Source of the DNA: Planctomycetota bacterium
GTDB taxonomy: Bacteria > Planctomycetota > Planctomycetia > Pirellulales > UBA1268
Length of the DNA stretch: 57,578 nt
Assembly (NCBI GenBank): GCA_016872955.1
Contig: VGYP01000001.1
Span: 1 to 57,578 of the forward strand
Reading direction: 5' to 3'
Part shown: positions 9,834 through 53,830 of the stretch, piece after piece
How the letters are laid out: the number at the start of each line of letters is the position of its first letter
How positions within the stretch are numbered: the stretch's first letter is position 1
Notes under the pieces: model-generated
What the model saw: only the letters and a program-made list of their open reading frames with translations
The model's database searches: none
What the model was told of the DNA's origin: nothing
Program-made: the position numbers and the translations under genes

Positions 9834-11330
9834 ATGAACCACCAGTCTGTCACCCTCCCGCCTGGGCCCGCGGCCCTGCTGCCCGTGCTTGTGGCCCTCG
9901 CCGCCGCGCTGCTGGTGACCCCCGCCAGCGCCTGCCCGTTCTGCTCCGCCGTGTCGCCGACCTTCGCCCAGGAGATCGCCCAGAGCGGGGCGGCCGTGAT
10001 CGCCACGCTCGTCGAGCCACCGCCGGCCTCAGCGCTCCAGCCCAATGCCGAGGGGCCGCTGCCCAAGGGGAAGTTCGAGGTGGTCGAGGTGCTCAAGGGG
10101 GCCGACGTCGTCGCGGCGGCCGGCCTTACCGGCGCCGGCGCCACCCCAATCGAGACGATCATGCTCGAGGCCCAGCCGGTGGGCACGACCTTCCTGTTGA
10201 TGGGCGTCGAACCGCCCCAGATCGTCTGGAGCAGCCCGATCCGCATCGGCGACCGCGCGATCGCCTACCTCAAGAAGCTCGCCGGCCTGCCGGAGAAGGG
10301 GGCCGACCGGCTGGCCTTCTTCCTGGGTCACCTCGAGGACGAGGACGACACGCTCACCCGCGACGCCTACGACGAGTTCGCCGTCGCCCCCTACGAGGAT
10401 GTCAAGAATCTCGCCGACCGGATGGACGCGACGCGGCTGCTCGGCTGGATCGAGAACCCCAAGATCCCGGCCAATCGCCGCCGTCTCTATGCCACCATGC
10501 TTGGCGTCTGCGGCACGCCGGCCGACGCCGAGCGGATCGCCGCGATCCTTGAGGGCAAGGGACTGGCCGCCGAGCAGCCCGAGATTCGCAACGGCCTCGA
10601 CGCCCTGATCGCCTGCTACGTCGCGCTGCGGGGGGAGTCGGCGCTCGACCTGGTCGACACGCTCTTCCTCGAGCGGGCCGGCGGCGGCAAGGAGGTGCCC
10701 TTCACCGAGACCTATGCGGCGGTGATGGCCCTGCGGTTTTTGGGGGAGGAGTCGCAGCTCGTGCCGCGATCGCGGGTGCTCGCCTCGCTGCGGCTGTTGC
10801 TCGACGAGCCGAAGCTCGCCGACCTGGTGATCGCCGACCTGTCCCGCTGGCAGGATTGGTCGCTCATCGAGCGGCTGACGACGATCTTCAAGGAGGCCAA
10901 GTCGGACAACATCTTCGTCCGCGAGCCAATCGTGAACTATCTCCGCGCCTGCCCGTTGCCCGAGGCCGCCGCGGCCGTCCGGGACCTTGAGCAAATCGAC
11001 CCCGAGGCGGTGCGACGGGCCGCCACGCTGGCGGGGCTCGCCGGCATCGCGGCCGCCACCCCAGCCGGCGACGACGCCGCGGCCAACCCCGCGGGCGACG
11101 CCGACCTCGCCGGCCAGATCGGCGCCGTGATCGCCGACGAGGATCCGGCCGACGGTAACCCCGGCCGCGATCCATCGTCCCCACTCCCGCCAAGCCGCAC
11201 TCCGTCGACCGCACCCGCCGGCGACGGCTGGAAGCGGGTCCTCTGGGGCGTGGTCGTCCTGGTAGTGGCGGTCGTCACCCGGTCGTTGCTCAAGCCCGGA
11301 TCGTCAAGGGGCCGGCAGGTATCGCTGTGA
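9834..11330 (+). CDS. uncharacterised envelope protein: signal peptide ending in C-P-F-C, helical-repeat body, C-terminal TM anchor (paralog 1)
   Basis: MNHQSVTLPPGPAALLPVLVALAAALLVTPASA|CPFCSAV. The body is alpha-helical and HEAT-like. The C-terminal TM helix is WKRVLWGVVVLVVAVV. It is clearly paralogous to 15568..16704. TACAAT at 9821-9826 sits immediately upstream of the ATG. Confidence 0.7.
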   Translation: MNHQSVTLPPGPAALLPVLVALAAALLVTPASACPFCSAVSPTFAQEIAQSGAAVIATLVEPPPASALQPNAEGPLPKGKFEVVEVLKGADVVAAAGLTGAGATPIETIMLEAQPVGTTFLLMGVEPPQIVWSSPIRIGDRAIAYLKKLAGLPEKGADRLAFFLGHLEDEDDTLTRDAYDEFAVAPYEDVKNLADRMDATRLLGWIENPKIPANRRRLYATMLGVCGTPADAERIAAILEGKGLAAEQPEIRNGLDALIACYVALRGESALDLVDTLFLERAGGGKEVPFTETYAAVMALRFLGEESQLVPRSRVLASLRLLLDEPKLADLVIADLSRWQDWSLIERLTTIFKEAKSDNIFVREPIVNYLRACPLPEAAAAVRDLEQIDPEAVRRAATLAGLAGIAAATPAGDDAAANPAGDADLAGQIGAVIADEDPADGNPGRDPSSPLPPSRTPSTAPAGDGWKRVLWGVVVLVVAVVTRSLLKPGSSRGRQVSL

Positions 11331-12046
11331 ACTCCCCCGGACCATGCCGAGTGCCCACGAGCACGGGACTTTTCGACGCACCCGCCCTCTCCGCCCCGCG
11401 CGTCGACGCGGCAGTTGGCGACGATCGCTACCGCGCTGTCTCCGGAGCGGCGATCGTGGCGCTGGCCCTCGCCCTGCTGACGCCGCTGGTGTTCGTCGGC
11501 TGGACCTTCGCGGCGGTGCCGGTGGTCGGGGTCGTGATCGCCCTGGTGGCACTGGGCGACATCGCCCGCCGACCCGAGGCCGTCACCGGGCGGGGCCTCG
11601 CGATCACCGCCCTGGGGGTCTCGGCCACCAGCCTCGTGGCGGGCCTGGCCTACCTTGCGACGGTCTACGCGGCGGAACTGCCCGAGGGCTTCACGCGGCT
11701 CACCTATGCGGTCCTGCAGCCGCTGCCGGGCGACCCGCCCGCGGCAGTGCCCGACTCGGCCCACGCCGTCGCCGGCCAGAACGTGCTGCTCAAGGGCTAC
11801 ATGTACCCGGGCACGCGGCAGCGGGGGATCACCGAGTTTCTGCTCTGCCGCGACCAAGGCGACTGCTGCTTCGGCGGGCAGCCCAAGATCACCGACCGGG
11901 TGCTCGTACGGCTCGCCGATCCGACCGGCATGGTGTTCACCCAGGGGCTCGTCAAGATCGCCGGCCGGTTCCGCGTCGAGCCGGCCGGCACGCCTGAACT
12001 CGGCGGCGGCGTGCTCTACCACATCGATGACGCCGTCACCCGTTAG
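11327..12046 (+). CDS. membrane protein with DUF4190-like N-terminus and DUF3299-like C-terminal domain
   Basis: The GTG start overlaps the upstream stop (GTGA at 11327-11330). The TM pair is AIVALALALLTPLVFVGW / VVGVVIALVALGDIARRP...GRGLAITALG. The C-terminus reads VLLKGYMYPGTRQRGITEFLLCRDQGDCCFGGQPKITDRVLVRL...GRFRVEP. Confidence 0.7.
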   Translation: MNSPGPCRVPTSTGLFDAPALSAPRVDAAVGDDRYRAVSGAAIVALALALLTPLVFVGWTFAAVPVVGVVIALVALGDIARRPEAVTGRGLAITALGVSATSLVAGLAYLATVYAAELPEGFTRLTYAVLQPLPGDPPAAVPDSAHAVAGQNVLLKGYMYPGTRQRGITEFLLCRDQGDCCFGGQPKITDRVLVRLADPTGMVFTQGLVKIAGRFRVEPAGTPELGGGVLYHIDDAVTR

Positions 12047-50114: not shown

Positions 50115-51326
50115 ATGCCCAGCCGTCGAGTCGGAGCCTGGCTCATCGGAGCCAAGGGGGGCGTCGCGACGACCATGATCACCGGCCTGGCGGCGCTCGC
50201 GCGGCGGGCGTTGGATCCCGTCGGCCTGGTGACGGCCACCGAACCGTTCGCCGGCCTGTCGCTGGTCGACTTCCCAGACATCGTCGTCGGCGGCCACGAC
50301 ATCCGCGCGGGCCGCCTCGCGGCCGAGGCGGGGAAGATGTGGACGCAGAGCCGGGCCATTCGTCCGGACCTCCTGGCCGACGCCGCGGACTTCTTCGCGG
50401 CGGTCGAGTCGCGCTTGAGGCCAGGCACGGTCGTGGGGGCCGGCGACCGGATCCGAGCGATCGCGGAGCAGGGGGCGGCCGTCGTGGTCGAGAGCCCGCG
50501 GCAGGCGATCGAGCGGATCCGGTCCGACATCGCCGCCTTCGCCGCGGCCGAGCGGCTCGACCACGTGGTGGTCGTCAATCTCGCCTCCACCGAGCCGCCC
50601 CCGGAGTGGCCGATCCCGCGTGACGTCGCCGACCTCGAGCCGCTGCTCGACGAGGTGGCGACGTGTCCGCTGCCGGCCAGCAGCCTCTATTTCCTGGCGG
50701 CGGCCGAGGCAGGGGCCTCCTACGTGAACTTCACACCCTCGGCCGGCGGTACGCCGGCCTGCCTGCAGGATGTCGCGGTCGCGCGGGGCATCGCCCAGGC
50801 CGGCTGCGACGGCAAGACGGGGGAGACGCTGCTCAAGAGCGTGCTCGCCCCGATGTTCGCCGCCCGGCACCTGGAGGTGATGAGCTGGGTGGGGCACAAC
50901 ATCTTCGGCAACATGGACGGCCAGGTCCTCGACGACCCCCGCAACAAGGCCGCCAAGGTCCGAAGTAAGGATCACCTGTTGGCGTCGATCCTGGGCTACG
51001 CCCCGCAGACGCACGTCTCGATCGAGTACATCGCGAGCATGGGCGACTGGAAGACCGCCTGGGACCACGTCCATTTCCGCGGCTTCCTCGGCACGCCGAT
51101 GACGCTGCAGTTCACCTGGCAGGGATGCGATTCGATCCTGGCGGCGCCGCTCGTGCTCGATCTGGTGCGGTTGGTGGAGCGGGCCTGGCGGGGCGGCGAG
51201 CGAGGCGGGCTCGACTGGCTGGCCTGCTTCTTCAAGAGCCCGCTGGGTGTGACGGAGCAGTCGTTCACCGAGCAGGTGACGATGCTGCACGACTGGGTGG
51301 AGCGGCAGCCGAGCGCGTCGAGTTGA
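50115..51326 (+). CDS. inositol-3-phosphate synthase (myo-inositol-1-phosphate synthase family)
   Basis: 403 aa. VGAWLIGAKGGVATTMITG..., SYVNFTPS and GKTGETLLKSVLAPMF, with the layout of the short bacterial/archaeal MIPS. Recognition is by overall pattern only. Confidence 0.75.
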   Translation: MPSRRVGAWLIGAKGGVATTMITGLAALARRALDPVGLVTATEPFAGLSLVDFPDIVVGGHDIRAGRLAAEAGKMWTQSRAIRPDLLADAADFFAAVESRLRPGTVVGAGDRIRAIAEQGAAVVVESPRQAIERIRSDIAAFAAAERLDHVVVVNLASTEPPPEWPIPRDVADLEPLLDEVATCPLPASSLYFLAAAEAGASYVNFTPSAGGTPACLQDVAVARGIAQAGCDGKTGETLLKSVLAPMFAARHLEVMSWVGHNIFGNMDGQVLDDPRNKAAKVRSKDHLLASILGYAPQTHVSIEYIASMGDWKTAWDHVHFRGFLGTPMTLQFTWQGCDSILAAPLVLDLVRLVERAWRGGERGGLDWLACFFKSPLGVTEQSFTEQVTMLHDWVERQPSASS

Positions 51327-51607
51327 GCCCGACGCGGCGACCGCACCGCGGTCCGCGCGCGGTCGCGAGGCCGTCGGAGCGGTCGACGACACCGATGGTG
51401 GTCCGCCCCTGCCGGTAAAAATTCCGGTTTTCTTCCCTTGACAGTTTTCCGGGTGATCCTCCACAACTCTCCGAATCGGCATGGGAACGAGGGCGAGTGA
51501 TCGCTCGGATTCCGATGCCGAAACGTCGTTCGCTCCCCTCCACAAGAGCACCCGGGGGCGCGGACGTGAGATCGGTGTCAGGGTGTTCGTGGCAAGGAGC
51601 CAGTTCC

Positions 51608-51670
51608 ATGGCGAAGAAGAAGAAAAAGAAGGCCGCCAAGAAGGTCGCCAAGAAGAAGGGCCACGGCTGA
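51608..51670 (+). CDS. 20-codon poly-lysine micro-ORF (MAKKKKKKAAKKVAKKKGHG)
   Basis: AAGGAG lies 9 nt upstream of the ATG. 11 of 20 codons are Lys, and 10 of those 11 use the GC-preferred AAG. The alternative poly-Glu frame would use the disfavoured GAA. Whether it is coding or regulatory is open. Confidence 0.4.
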   Translation: MAKKKKKKAAKKVAKKKGHG

Positions 51671-51855
51671 GTGGCCCGTGCCTGACGGCCCTTCGGAGCC
51701 GGTCATGGCACGGCACTCACCCGCGGGGTTCCACTCGTGGAGCCCCTGGCGGTCCGCTTCGCGGGCCGCCCCCTTCGCTTCGGCCGGCCTGCGGCCGTCC
51801 GACCCTCGGGTCTGGCGGGACGGGGAGGTCGAGGCGTCCACGATCTGACGAGAAA

Positions 51856-51898
51856 GGCCGGCCCGGGCCCTTGGGCGCCCGGGCCGGCCTCATTTTTG
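51856..51898 (+). terminator. strong rho-independent terminator
   Basis: A perfect 13-bp stem GGCCGGCCCGGGC / GCCCGGGCCGGCC has an 8-nt loop. TCATTTTTG follows. It lies 45 nt upstream of the rlmM-like start. Confidence 0.75.
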
Positions 51899-51942
51899 TC
51901 GCCAGCGCCCGCGGCCCGGCCGGCCACTAGGCTTTTCGCCCG

Positions 51943-53046
51943 ATGGAACCCGTCGTCCGAGCCATGCCGCCGCAAAGCGAGTTTCTGCTTGCCGCCTGCC
52001 AGGCGGGTGCGGAGGGGGCGGTGCGCGAGCGGATGGCGGTCGGCTGGCCGGACGTGAAGCCCGGCGCCTGGCGCCGGGGCGTGGTGACCTTTCGTCTGCC
52101 TGCGCCGGTTCAAGACCTGCCAGCCGACCTGCTCGATCGCCTCGTCTTCGCACGCACGCTCATGCACTCGCTCGGTCAGGTGACCGGATCGGACCCCGCG
52201 GCGCTCGCCGCCGAGGCGACTGCCCGCGCGGGCACGACCGGCTGGCAGCGGGTCCACTGTTGGCATCGGCAGTTCGTGCCGGGATCACAGCGCCCGACGC
52301 TCGCCGAGCCGGTCGCCGCGGCGCTCGCCGCGACGCTGGCCGCCTGCGGCCTGCCGGCCCAGACCGACCCGACGGCCCGCCCTGGGGACCTCGTGCTCGA
52401 TGTGGTCGTCGACTCGCCGGAGCGCTGGTGGGTGGGCTGGCATCGAGCCGCCGAACCCGCCACCTGCTGGCCTGGCGGCATCCACCGGCTCGCGACCGGA
52501 CCGTTACCCGTCGGCAAGGTGTCGCGGGCGTGGTTGAAGCTCGACGAAGCGATCGCGTTGTTCGGGATCCCGTTGGCCGCCGGCGAGCGTAGCGTGGAGC
52601 TCGGCGCCGCGCCCGGCGGAGCGTGTCAGCGATTGCTTGAGGCCGGCCTGCGGGTGGTCGGGGTCGATCCGGCGATCGTCGATCCGGCAGTTGCGGCACT
52701 GCCAGGATTCACCCAGTGGCGGATGCGGGCGCGGGACGTGCCCGTGGCCCGCTTCGCGGGGTTCGACTGGCTCGTGGCGGACATGAACATCGACCCGCGC
52801 AGCACCCTGGCGGCCTTGGGCCGCGTCGCCACGGCCAAGGGAGTGCGGCCGGCGGGCATCGTGGCGACCTTTAAACTTCCCGTCTGGTCGCGTGCCGGGG
52901 AGGTCGCCGAGTGGCTGGCGGCCTTCGCCGGCTGGGGCTTCCGGACCAGGGCGCGGCAGCTCTCGTCGAGCGGCCGTGAACTCTGCGTGGTGGCCACGCC
53001 GGGCGGCGTCAGGCCTCGCCCAGCCAGACGTCCTCGGGGGGCGTGA
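51943..53046 (+). CDS. rlmM: RlmM-like 23S rRNA 2'-O-ribose methyltransferase (THUMP-like N-domain plus FtsJ-type SAM MTase)
   Basis: VSRAWLKLDEAIALFGIPLAAGERSVELGAAPGGACQRLLEAGLRVVGVD...DWLVADMNIDP parallels RlmM (SRSTLKLEEA...DLGACPGGWT...CDMVEKP). Confidence 0.7.
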   Translation: MEPVVRAMPPQSEFLLAACQAGAEGAVRERMAVGWPDVKPGAWRRGVVTFRLPAPVQDLPADLLDRLVFARTLMHSLGQVTGSDPAALAAEATARAGTTGWQRVHCWHRQFVPGSQRPTLAEPVAAALAATLAACGLPAQTDPTARPGDLVLDVVVDSPERWWVGWHRAAEPATCWPGGIHRLATGPLPVGKVSRAWLKLDEAIALFGIPLAAGERSVELGAAPGGACQRLLEAGLRVVGVDPAIVDPAVAALPGFTQWRMRARDVPVARFAGFDWLVADMNIDPRSTLAALGRVATAKGVRPAGIVATFKLPVWSRAGEVAEWLAAFAGWGFRTRARQLSSSGRELCVVATPGGVRPRPARRPRGA

Positions 53047-53830
53047 GGCTGCCGGACACGATGAGGAGCTGGCCCGTCGGCGTGTCGAGGATGAGTCGGC
53101 CGTCGGCTGCGATGCCGCCACAGATGCCATCGTGGATGCGCTTTGCCACGTGGACGCGGATCGGTCGCCCCACGAGTGCACACAGCGGTCGGTAGCGGTC
53201 GGCCAGAAACCGCTCGTCGCTGGTCACGTCGGCCAAGACCGCGAACAGCCGCGGCAGGAACTCGGCGAGCAGCCGCTGTCTGCCGAGGGGACGGCCGACG
53301 AGATCGGGTAGTGTGGCCACGCGGCGAGCGAGCCGCGGCGGTGCCTCGGTCGCAGAGCCGGTCGTGTTGACGCCGATTCCGAAAATCGTCCGGCCGCCGA
53401 CCGTCTCGACGAGGATACCGGCGAGCTTGCGGCCCGCGACCTCCACGTCGTTGGGCCAGCGGACGAGGGCCGCCACGGTCGGCTCGAGCAGGCGGATCGT
53501 CTCGGCGAGCGCCACCCCTGCGGCCAGCGACCAGGAGGGCGGCGGCCCGGCGGGAGCGTTCCGGGCGGCCACCACCACGCTCACCGCCAGCGCGCCGGCG
53601 GGCTGCCACCAGCTGGCCGCGCGGCGACCACGGCCGCGCCGCTGCCGGTCGGCGACGACGGCGAAGGGCAGGGCCGCGTCCGATGCGCTGGCGACCGCGC
53701 GGGCCCGATCCATGGTGGAGTCGGCCTCCGCCAGCTGCTCGAACGTCGCCAGGGAGCCTGGGCCGACGAGGGCGGCGGGGTCGATCGCGTCGGTCGGCCC
53801 GACCGCCGTTGCGGGCTGGTGGCTGGGCAA
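53009..53830 (-). CDS. birA: biotin--[acetyl-CoA-carboxylase] ligase
   Basis: FEQLAEADSTMDRAR and RQRRGRGRRAASWW (the GRGRxGRxW biotin-binding loop). The listed start is TTG, so the true start is uncertain. It overlaps the rlmM-like 3' end convergently. Confidence 0.82.
   Translation of the reverse strand: MPSHQPATAVGPTDAIDPAALVGPGSLATFEQLAEADSTMDRARAVASASDAALPFAVVADRQRRGRGRRAASWWQPAGALAVSVVVAARNAPAGPPPSWSLAAGVALAETIRLLEPTVAALVRWPNDVEVAGRKLAGILVETVGGRTIFGIGVNTTGSATEAPPRLARRVATLPDLVGRPLGRQRLLAEFLPRLFAVLADVTSDERFLADRYRPLCALVGRPIRVHVAKRIHDGICGGIAADGRLILDTPTGQLLIVSGSLTPPEDVWLGEA

Follow-up and report, generated by a model that had tools for sequence, protein, structure and literature searches.

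A polylysine micro-gene with a predicted leader pseudoknot and a signature terminator in planctomycetes of the order Pirellulales

What does a stretch of DNA encode in which a lysine-dense micro-open reading frame (micro-ORF) is followed by a series of hairpins and a strong intrinsic terminator, directly in front of a gene for a ribosomal RNA (rRNA) methyltransferase? This question is raised by positions 51430 to 51942 of a window of 57,578 nucleotides (nt), which is contig VGYP01000001.1 (positions 1 to 57,578, forward strand) of the planctomycete assembly GCA_016872955.1. An earlier note, made from the letters alone, had offered two readings of this locus, namely a leader-peptide attenuator, in which translation of the lysine run would govern how the downstream RNA folds and thereby read-through into the methyltransferase gene, or a genuine, extremely basic micro-protein of the class of the ultra-short ribosomal proteins bL37 and bS22. 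All features listed there are present at the positions given. We arrived at a third reading, which takes up parts of both. With moderate confidence, we regard the locus as an autonomous micro-gene for a polycationic nucleic-acid-binding micro-protein, whereby a partner related to RNA or the ribosome is favoured. Coordinates are those of the window, and all features lie on its forward strand unless stated otherwise.

The micro-ORF spans 51608-51670 (codons 51608-51667, TGA stop codon 51668-51670) and encodes the 20-amino-acid (aa) peptide MAKKKKKKAAKKVAKKKGHG, of which 55% is lysine (11 Lys and 1 His). Eleven of the 20 codons are lysine codons, ten AAG and one AAA, as had been counted in the earlier note, where conservation of the ORF in relatives was also proposed as a check. 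Comparison of 73 loci from the same family revealed that the frame and the start MAKKK are kept throughout. These loci comprise 28 peptide variants of 10 to 67 aa, in which all length changes are in frame, and most variants finish with Gly-His-Gly or Gly-His-Ala, an ending that is retained from the 10-mer to the 67-mer. The 41 20-mers of canonical form are encoded by 16 nucleotide variants, with 1, 5, and 7 variable sites at codon positions 1, 2, and 3, respectively. Changes within the ORF are only wobble or conservative ones, the alanine codons vary synonymously (GCG/GCC/GCA; GCT/GCC/GCA), and the stop codon alternates between TGA and TAG. Lysine is encoded by AAG 1017 times and by AAA 49 times in the family. 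The length changes are due to inserted units of the (V/A)AKKK type, of which the window peptide has about three and peptides of other genera up to about a dozen, and this argues for a translated low-complexity protein rather than a mere RNA spacer. Judged by this pattern of substitutions, the view that the micro-ORF is a real coding gene is supported. The shortest form observed is the 10-aa peptide MAKKKKKGHG (locus L087), and at loci L031, L048, L141, and L154 repeated (V/A)AKKK units expand the peptide to 53-67 aa; all of these extreme variants retain the MAKKK N-terminus and the G-H-G/A C-terminus.

The micro-ORF is part of a larger conserved unit. Based on the reading of the sequence and on conservation in relatives, the region from promoter to terminator (51438-51898) forms a single transcription unit, with a predicted transcript of about 425 nt that consists of a leader of about 134 nt, a Shine-Dalgarno sequence, the 20-codon ORF, a folded 3' untranslated region (UTR), and the terminator. 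A stretch of 471 nt has a folding z-score of -6.2 compared to dinucleotide shuffles. The unit is single-copy in the window's own genome, a lake-water assembly with 92% completeness, and was found in 22 of the 24 sampled genomes of the genus with 69-83% nucleotide identity. On the family level it is present in 160 of 176 genomes, among them all 83 high-quality ones, and in all 12 genera. When relatives were searched on the DNA level, the match spanned the region from the -35 hexamer to the U tract, and essentially nothing past it. Invariant in the genus alignment are TTGACAG, CACAAC, AAGGAGCC, the ORF, and the last approximately 60 nt including the terminator, while the proteins encoded by neighbouring genes are just 50-85% identical in amino acids. 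The relatives were deposited as Pirellulales or Planctomycetia metagenome-assembled genomes (MAGs). The records of five lake MAGs that carry the unit (L092, L094, L099, L140, and L118) bear names such as Candidatus Kuenenia or Planctomicrobium piriforme; these labels are at odds with the shared locus and are probably mistaken.

The perfect TTGACA hexamer at 51438-51443 (as TTGACAG), which the earlier note had recognized, does not vary in any of the 20 genus loci and occurs in most other genera as well. Its partner had been described there as merely weak, which has to be corrected: the -10-like CACAAC at 51462-51467, 18 nt after the -35 hexamer, is equally invariant in 20 of 20 genus loci and recurs as TACAAC or in an xAxAAC form in other genera and families. 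Because of this invariance and recurrence, CACAAC is probably the -10 element of the lineage, and we infer a transcription start near 51474. An A/T-rich inverted repeat (CCGG-A5TT-CCGG plus a T-rich tail, 51411-51436), detected in a scan for terminator-like elements, lies directly 5' of the -35 hexamer, and an equivalent A/T palindrome occupies the same place in the genus and in other genera, even where the upstream gene is a different one. Its role may be that of an UP-like element, that of a terminator for the inositol-phosphate synthase gene upstream, or both; it could also act as an operator or an insulating terminator.

The leader sequence contains the most informative structural element of the unit. 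It begins with a hairpin of variable sequence and length (51476-51521), which was predicted in the centroid fold; its arms co-vary in the genus alignment, and other hairpins substitute for it in other genera. This is followed by stem P1 (51527-51566), in which 51527-51538 pair with 51555-51566. RNAalifold analysis of 39 family sequences yielded 12 pairs for P1, 8 of which show compensatory changes, with 93.6% of the alignment cells paired. The loop of P1 holds the strand GAGCACCC (51546-51553), which pairs with GGGTGTTC at 51581-51588, 5 nt before the Shine-Dalgarno sequence. In the same alignment this second helix consists of 8 pairs, of which 3 changed on both sides, and 97% of the cells are paired. 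For the leader structure as a whole, 95.5% of the cells are paired, compared to 35-49% with slid partners, both-side changes occur in 11 pairs, and the observed covariation score was reached by none of 500 shuffles. According to these alignments, the leader holds a covariation-supported H-type pseudoknot that abuts the ribosome-binding site. The Shine-Dalgarno sequence AAGGAG (51594-51599) and the ATG at 51608, both already named in the earlier note, are invariant in the 39 family sequences, as are AAGGAGCC and ATGGC. A small predicted hairpin of 5 bp, GCCAG/ATGGC (51599-51612), would enclose the start codon; its sequence never varies and therefore offers no covariation. The regulatory-looking conserved structure is located upstream of the micro-ORF and not downstream of it.

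Downstream of the stop codon, a structured 3' UTR (51671-51847) contains the hairpins that had been noticed before, at 51676-51713, 51725-51746, 51748-51770, and 51800-51811. Its length and sequence are genus-specific. Compensatory changes were found within the genus in 5 of the 8 pairs of the second hairpin, and paired substitutions are visible in the genus alignment for the others. In other genera the distance from stop codon to terminator amounts to 67-200 nt and is filled with variable, independently folded RNA. The 3' UTR ends in the 9-mer ACGAGAAAG (51848-51856) directly 5' of the terminator. This 9-mer is invariant, apart from one G and one extra T, in 14 aligned 3' ends of two gene types (types A and B, see below) from eight families of the order, and it stays fixed while the hairpin behind it varies between families. 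Within the window's own genome, ACGAGAAAG precedes a terminator at this locus only. The terminator scan placed the intrinsic terminator at 51855-51898, with a stem at 51855-51890 followed by a T5 tract. The strong terminator described in the earlier note is thereby confirmed, whereby we count 14 pairs (13 G-C) in the stem. The 36-nt hairpin is identical, or different at one position, in the family loci examined across genera. At four loci of the same genus (L004, L007, L008, and L010) the U tract is degraded to CGTCTGTT instead of a T5-type run, with an otherwise identical hairpin; at L004, L008, and L010 the spacer before the RlmM-like gene is about 400-500 nt longer, and at L007 the sequence stops before the gene. 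The Rfam scan that had been suggested for the locus was run with cmscan on positions 50800-52500 with E-values up to 10 and matched no family: for the leader and the 3' UTR there were chance-level matches only, far below the gathering scores.

The 9-mer led beyond the family, as lysine-rich micro-ORFs of other families of the order share ACGAGAAAG right before a terminator whose stem sequence is family-specific. Of 151 genomes from 30 families of the order, which depositors assign to Pirellulales, 104 genomes in 27 families contain the signature-terminator pattern, and the pattern yielded non-hairpin noise only in 201 sampled genomes of the phylum outside the order. Thirty pattern loci were fetched, five of which were non-hairpin chance matches. 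All 25 remaining hairpin-type loci have a basic micro-ORF upstream, 23 of them identified by a first script and two, which are Arg/Ser-rich, found later. As a marker beyond planctomycetes, the combination of ACGAGAAAG and the GGCCGG terminator was rejected: the matches in Actinomycetota, Gemmatimonadota, and Pseudomonadota turned out to be common G+C-rich hairpins that lack a basic ORF.

Two types of genes can be distinguished within this order-wide family, which is undescribed, and these are paralogous. In type A (L021-L030, L051-L079), the start region reads GGAGG, 7 nt, GTG GCC AAG, the protein is K/A-rich with 21-86 aa, and the terminator has the form AGAGCCGC...GCGGCUCU, which can also be written as ACGAGAAAG-AGCCGC...GCGGCUCU. 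In type B, the start region reads AGGAGCC, 5-8 nt, ATGGC, the proteins range from 27 to 75 aa between families and have a conserved AKRSPK core, the terminator is GGCCGG...CCGGCC, and the leader shows the same pseudoknot design as in the window. Types A and B co-occur in many genomes, and the family of the window carries type B alone. The four features of type B, i.e. the pseudoknot leader, AGGAGCC-N5-8-ATGGC, the basic micro-ORF, and ACGAGAAAG with the GGCCGG...CCGGCC terminator, are all found in the window, in the 73 family loci, and in other families. By all these signals the unit of the window is of type B, and its peptide has turned into a pure Lys/Ala 20-mer. The same pairing of a loop with the sequence in front of the Shine-Dalgarno motif recurs with other sequences in 25 type-B leaders of other families, whereby a match of at least 8 nt is found in 64% of these leaders compared to 11% of shuffles. 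The positions are constant: counted from the AUG, the two paired 7-9-mers lie at -58 to -67, in the loop, and at -26 to -32, and their sequences vary by family. In family f8 (L233-L236) the type-B products are Arg/Ser-rich, MAARRK...SSSRKSARSPKK...RRSSSGRR, and recall protamine or SR-type tails.

Database searches gave the family no name. An exact-sequence look-up of seven such peptides among about 15 billion predicted proteins found none of them. The 20-mer, longer relatives, and a type-B profile were compared to Pfam, NCBIfam, and PDB sequences without a usable match; in particular, nothing was returned from PDB chains (2026 copy) at E-values up to 10, neither by phmmer with the 20-mer nor by a profile built from 15 type-B peptides, and no NCBIfam model matched the peptide even at E = 10. 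A word-based homologue search with the 67-aa relative produced a single low-complexity match, and the ESM Atlas, queried with a 44-aa type-B protein, returned only unnamed "hypothetical protein" clusters. In full-text literature searches, no paper on lysine-rich micro-proteins of planctomycetes was found.

Which genes accompany the unit? In the window it is flanked upstream by a myo-inositol-1-phosphate synthase gene and downstream by a gene for an RlmM-like rRNA 2'-O-methyltransferase with FtsJ fold (51943-53046; Pfam FtsJ 4e-09; NCBIfam RlmM 1.3e-15, which is below the cut-off), beyond which follows a convergent biotin ligase gene. The RlmM-like ORF, which ends at 53046, and the longest biotin ligase ORF (reverse strand, 53009-53830) overlap tail to tail by 38 nt (53009-53046). 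The ATG at 51943 lies 45 nt past the terminator, as stated in the earlier note. According to tblastn, the RlmM-like gene adjoins the unit in all genus loci with enough downstream sequence, and in six further genera of the family a window-like N-terminus (FLL..CQ.G.E motif) was read by eye behind the terminator. No such adjacency exists in five other families, whose RlmM-like gene is found on another contig or at a distance of 1.6 Mb. Outside the window's family, 18 of 28 type-B loci, drawn from at least six families, have a co-directional DEAD-box RNA helicase gene 85-310 nt behind the terminator. These helicases (L060, L063, L119, L131, L159, L241, and L244-L250) form one orthologous group, with an acidic Ala/Pro-rich linker and a conserved C-terminal end of the GRGGR.PRRFRRAL type. 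The orthologue in the window's genome lies on contig C5 at about 9870-11430, behind a gene resembling that of a succinate dehydrogenase Fe-S subunit, and no second copy or remnant of the unit is present there. For type A, the idea of a shared functional neighbour was dropped, as its downstream gene is a convergent Mrp/NUBPL ATPase gene.

The window's genome itself was found in no RNA run. Conserved parts of the unit from relatives were found in four river or freshwater metatranscriptome assemblies with word depths of hundreds to thousands, in unstranded contigs that may include DNA. One contig of 296 nt starts about 62 nt 5' of the counterpart of 51536, near the predicted transcription start, a second one of 1488 nt extends from the leader across the terminator and into the methyltransferase gene, and short contigs cover the terminator alone. 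What can be taken from these contigs is limited to presence in RNA libraries and to consistency with read-through. Between the stop codon of the micro-ORF and the start of the RlmM-like gene, no -35 of the TTGAC type was seen. A sigma-70 consensus scan misses the unit's own promoter and therefore says nothing on promoters for the downstream gene.

Taken together, we suggest that the peptide is translated and would act as a small polycation on nucleic acids. Its partner would be RNA, i.e. rRNA or ribosome-assembly intermediates, and its role that of an RNA-condensing or chaperoning cofactor and not that of a fixed component of a ribosomal subunit. RNA is favoured over DNA because the same micro-gene precedes two different enzymes of RNA metabolism or ribosome biogenesis; coating of DNA in the manner of histone H1 or Hc2 would be the less likely alternative. 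The pseudoknot probably sets translation of the peptide, either as an operator for the product or a partner, comparable to the leaders of rpsO/S15 and T4 gene 32, or through a temperature-dependent fold as in the cspA messenger RNA (mRNA). The terminator would make the 3' end of a short, abundant mRNA, and residual constitutive read-through, without any step that senses lysine, probably feeds the downstream enzyme gene in a layout that resembles rpsO-pnp. The read-through is deduced from the start of the gene 45 nt after the U tract together with the missing TTGAC-type -35. Several points weigh against this reading. Both translation and the peptide itself are deduced from the sequence, and trypsin-based proteomics would destroy such a peptide. 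The metatranscriptome support comes from unstranded contigs of relatives, with the possible DNA content mentioned above, and read-through likewise is inferred. The choice of RNA over DNA is made by gene neighbourhood alone, and this neighbourhood is absent in families f23, f3, and f13. Furthermore, the near-total nucleotide identity of the lysine codons and the terminator could reflect a function on the RNA level. Finally, type-B proteins of other families contain RSPKK/SPKK-like motifs, and some variants within the family show pentamer-repeat expansions, both of which are classical for DNA-binding H1-like proteins (PMC2848022).

These last features would be expected if the peptide and its longer relatives were nucleoid proteins of the histone-H1/Hc2 kind, which coat and compact DNA by charge, with the RNA-enzyme neighbours being incidental. 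Planctomycetes share a superphylum with the Chlamydiae, and the sole weak family likenesses detected for the products are those to HC2 (PF07382) and to a Burkholderia H1-like model. The Lys/Ala-rich composition fits as well, and the number of pentamers, which expand the peptide from 20 to 67 aa in the family, also varies in chlamydial Hc2 and in BpH1 of Bordetella (PMC2848022). Nevertheless, we consider this explanation rather unlikely. The 67-aa relative reaches just 8.3 bits (E = 3) against the Pfam HC2 model, whose cut-off is 40, and the 20-mer does not match it at all; an SPKK motif is missing from the window peptide, which has just three or so pentamers, the genes conserved in the same orientation behind the unit encode two different RNA enzymes and nothing DNA-related, and HU genes are present for nucleoid duty. 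It is still less probable, and in our view doubtful, that the peptide is a stoichiometric ribosomal micro-protein of the bS22/eL41/bL37 kind that sits in an rRNA pocket, with the pseudoknot leader as an autoregulatory rRNA mimic. Pseudoknot operators are typical of ribosomal protein genes such as rpsO, and the gene is single-copy, near-universal in the family, and adjoins an rRNA methyltransferase gene. Its size and charge class (20 aa, more than half of them basic) fit too, and it is unannotated, as was bS22 in Borrelia (PMC10618245). What speaks against such a protein is the lack of any match among PDB chains or NCBIfam models, the presence of two paralogous gene types in many genomes, and the variable length with low-complexity repeats (10-67 aa in the window's family, 27-75 aa when families are compared), in contrast to a single-residue difference across three species groups in Borrelia bS22 (PMC10618245). 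The second reading of the earlier note is therefore supported as far as a genuine tiny basic coding gene is concerned, with in-frame variants at 73 loci; membership in the bS22/bL37 group is not supported, because of the missing PDB and NCBIfam matches and a length variation unlike the near-invariant bS22.

The two explanations in which the RNA plays the leading part fare worse. It might be that the RNA is the main product, i.e. that a regulatory RNA consisting of ACGAGAAAG and the hairpin is released from the 3' end of a dual-function mRNA, or that the whole RNA titrates a protein. A seed region would show just such a pattern, namely a single-stranded 9-mer that is invariant across the aligned examples of both gene types next to a variable hairpin; moreover, the 36-nt hairpin is kept across genera of the family, and short RNA contigs on the terminator alone would suit a released 3' end. 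However, the ORF is under clear coding constraint, and the complement of ACGAGAAAG is not enriched in the window's genome, with 19 occurrences on both strands versus about 27 expected at equal base use, so that we judge this explanation to be very unlikely. Lowest of all we rank the leader-peptide attenuator, in which ribosome progress on the lysine run would set the downstream fold and hence read-through into the RlmM-like gene; its probability appears minimal. The expected layout is certainly given, with hairpins and a terminator behind a Lys-dense ORF and a gene in the same direction 45 nt on; it is kept in the genus loci with enough downstream sequence and apparently in the six other genera of the family, and the 1488-nt contig of a relative bridges the terminator. 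Yet the unit is order-wide, occurs without the RlmM-like gene and in front of other genes, and persists while the ORF grows from 10 to 67 codons. The 67-200 nt behind the ORF are variable, self-contained hairpins, for which the alignments show no conserved alternative pairing to a terminator arm; moreover, the downstream gene is unrelated to lysine, and AAG is strongly preferred over AAA. Three of the four defining features of the first reading failed, and it is not supported in view of the order-wide occurrence without an RlmM-like gene and the absence of a conserved antiterminator. What stands of it is the architecture with a co-directional gene for an RNA enzyme behind the terminator (here the methyltransferase, in at least six other families the DEAD-box helicase); lysine sensing does not stand.

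Going back to the favoured reading, a nucleic-acid-binding micro-protein encoded by an autonomous gene, a wider hypothesis can be formulated, which we put forward tentatively and consider less likely than that reading itself. The order would carry an undescribed pair of polycationic micro-genes, with type B under a new pseudoknot riboregulator and its product being a free-standing basic "tail" that works together with the DEAD-box helicase, or here with the rRNA 2'-O-methyltransferase, in ribosome assembly or RNA remodelling. If true, this would introduce a new class of trans-acting micro-protein cofactors, a new cis-regulatory RNA motif, and ACGAGAAAG as a signature element of 3' ends. The locus is of interest in several respects: an unannotated core gene, single-copy and present in every high-quality genome of a lake-planctomycete family, is among the best-conserved stretches of its neighbourhood; it is a candidate for two planctomycete questions, namely nucleic-acid compaction and small factors of ribosome biogenesis; and its RNA motif, a pseudoknot predicted next to the ribosome-binding site and supported by covariation across families, is new. 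It also cautions that a Lys-rich micro-ORF before a terminator is not an attenuator by default. A cold-shock-domain gene was not found in the window's genome, nor in three of five other high-quality family genomes; the idea that the peptide stands in for missing cold-shock-domain proteins was dropped, as the domain occurs in 71 of 81 genomes of the order.

How does the unit compare to known systems? The amino-acid leader-peptide attenuators of the trp, his, leu, and thr operons likewise consist of a short ORF rich in one amino acid, followed by a terminator and a co-directional gene, but the planctomycete unit has no alternative antiterminator, its 3' UTR is long and independent, its target gene is unrelated to the amino acid, and it is autonomous elsewhere. 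Closer in layout are rpsO-pnp and the pseudoknot translational operators of Escherichia coli S15 and T4 gene 32, where the gene of a small basic nucleic-acid-binding protein and a pseudoknot adjacent to the ribosome-binding site are combined with a terminator and a subsequent co-directional gene for an RNA enzyme. There is no homology, however, the pseudoknot predicted here ends 5 nt before the Shine-Dalgarno sequence and does not include it, and binding by the product is hypothetical. A conserved 26-aa micro-ORF of unassigned function in the long leader of a DEAD-box helicase gene is known from yrbN-deaD (csdA) of E. coli (bioRxiv 10.1101/2021.03.08.434349), but yrbN overlaps with the start of the helicase gene and lacks a terminator, whereas the two genes are set apart by a strong terminator and 85-310 nt in the planctomycetes. 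With bS22, eL41, and bL37 the peptide shares the size range of 20-35 aa and a majority of basic residues (55% Lys in the window peptide versus about 61% Lys+Arg in Borrelia bS22), and also having been missed by annotation, strong conservation, a single gene copy, and a link to the ribosome by gene neighbourhood (PMC10618245). It differs from them in having no detectable similarity, a lysine-only repeat instead of mixed Arg/Lys with anchoring residues, and a highly variable length. Compared to Hc2 (HctB) of Chlamydia and BpH1 of Bordetella, the window peptide is 10 to 20 times smaller (20 aa versus 150-237 aa), and its unit comprises a pseudoknot leader, a signature terminator, and RNA-enzyme neighbours, without an HC2 match. 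It resembles both proteins in being Lys/Ala-rich and of low complexity, in its pentamer periodicity without negative charges, and in a repeat number that shifts quickly between close relatives (PMC2848022). A further likeness exists to HctA, which is controlled by the small RNA IhtA, in that expression is under post-transcriptional control (PMC3469542), which for the planctomycete unit is predicted from the leader.

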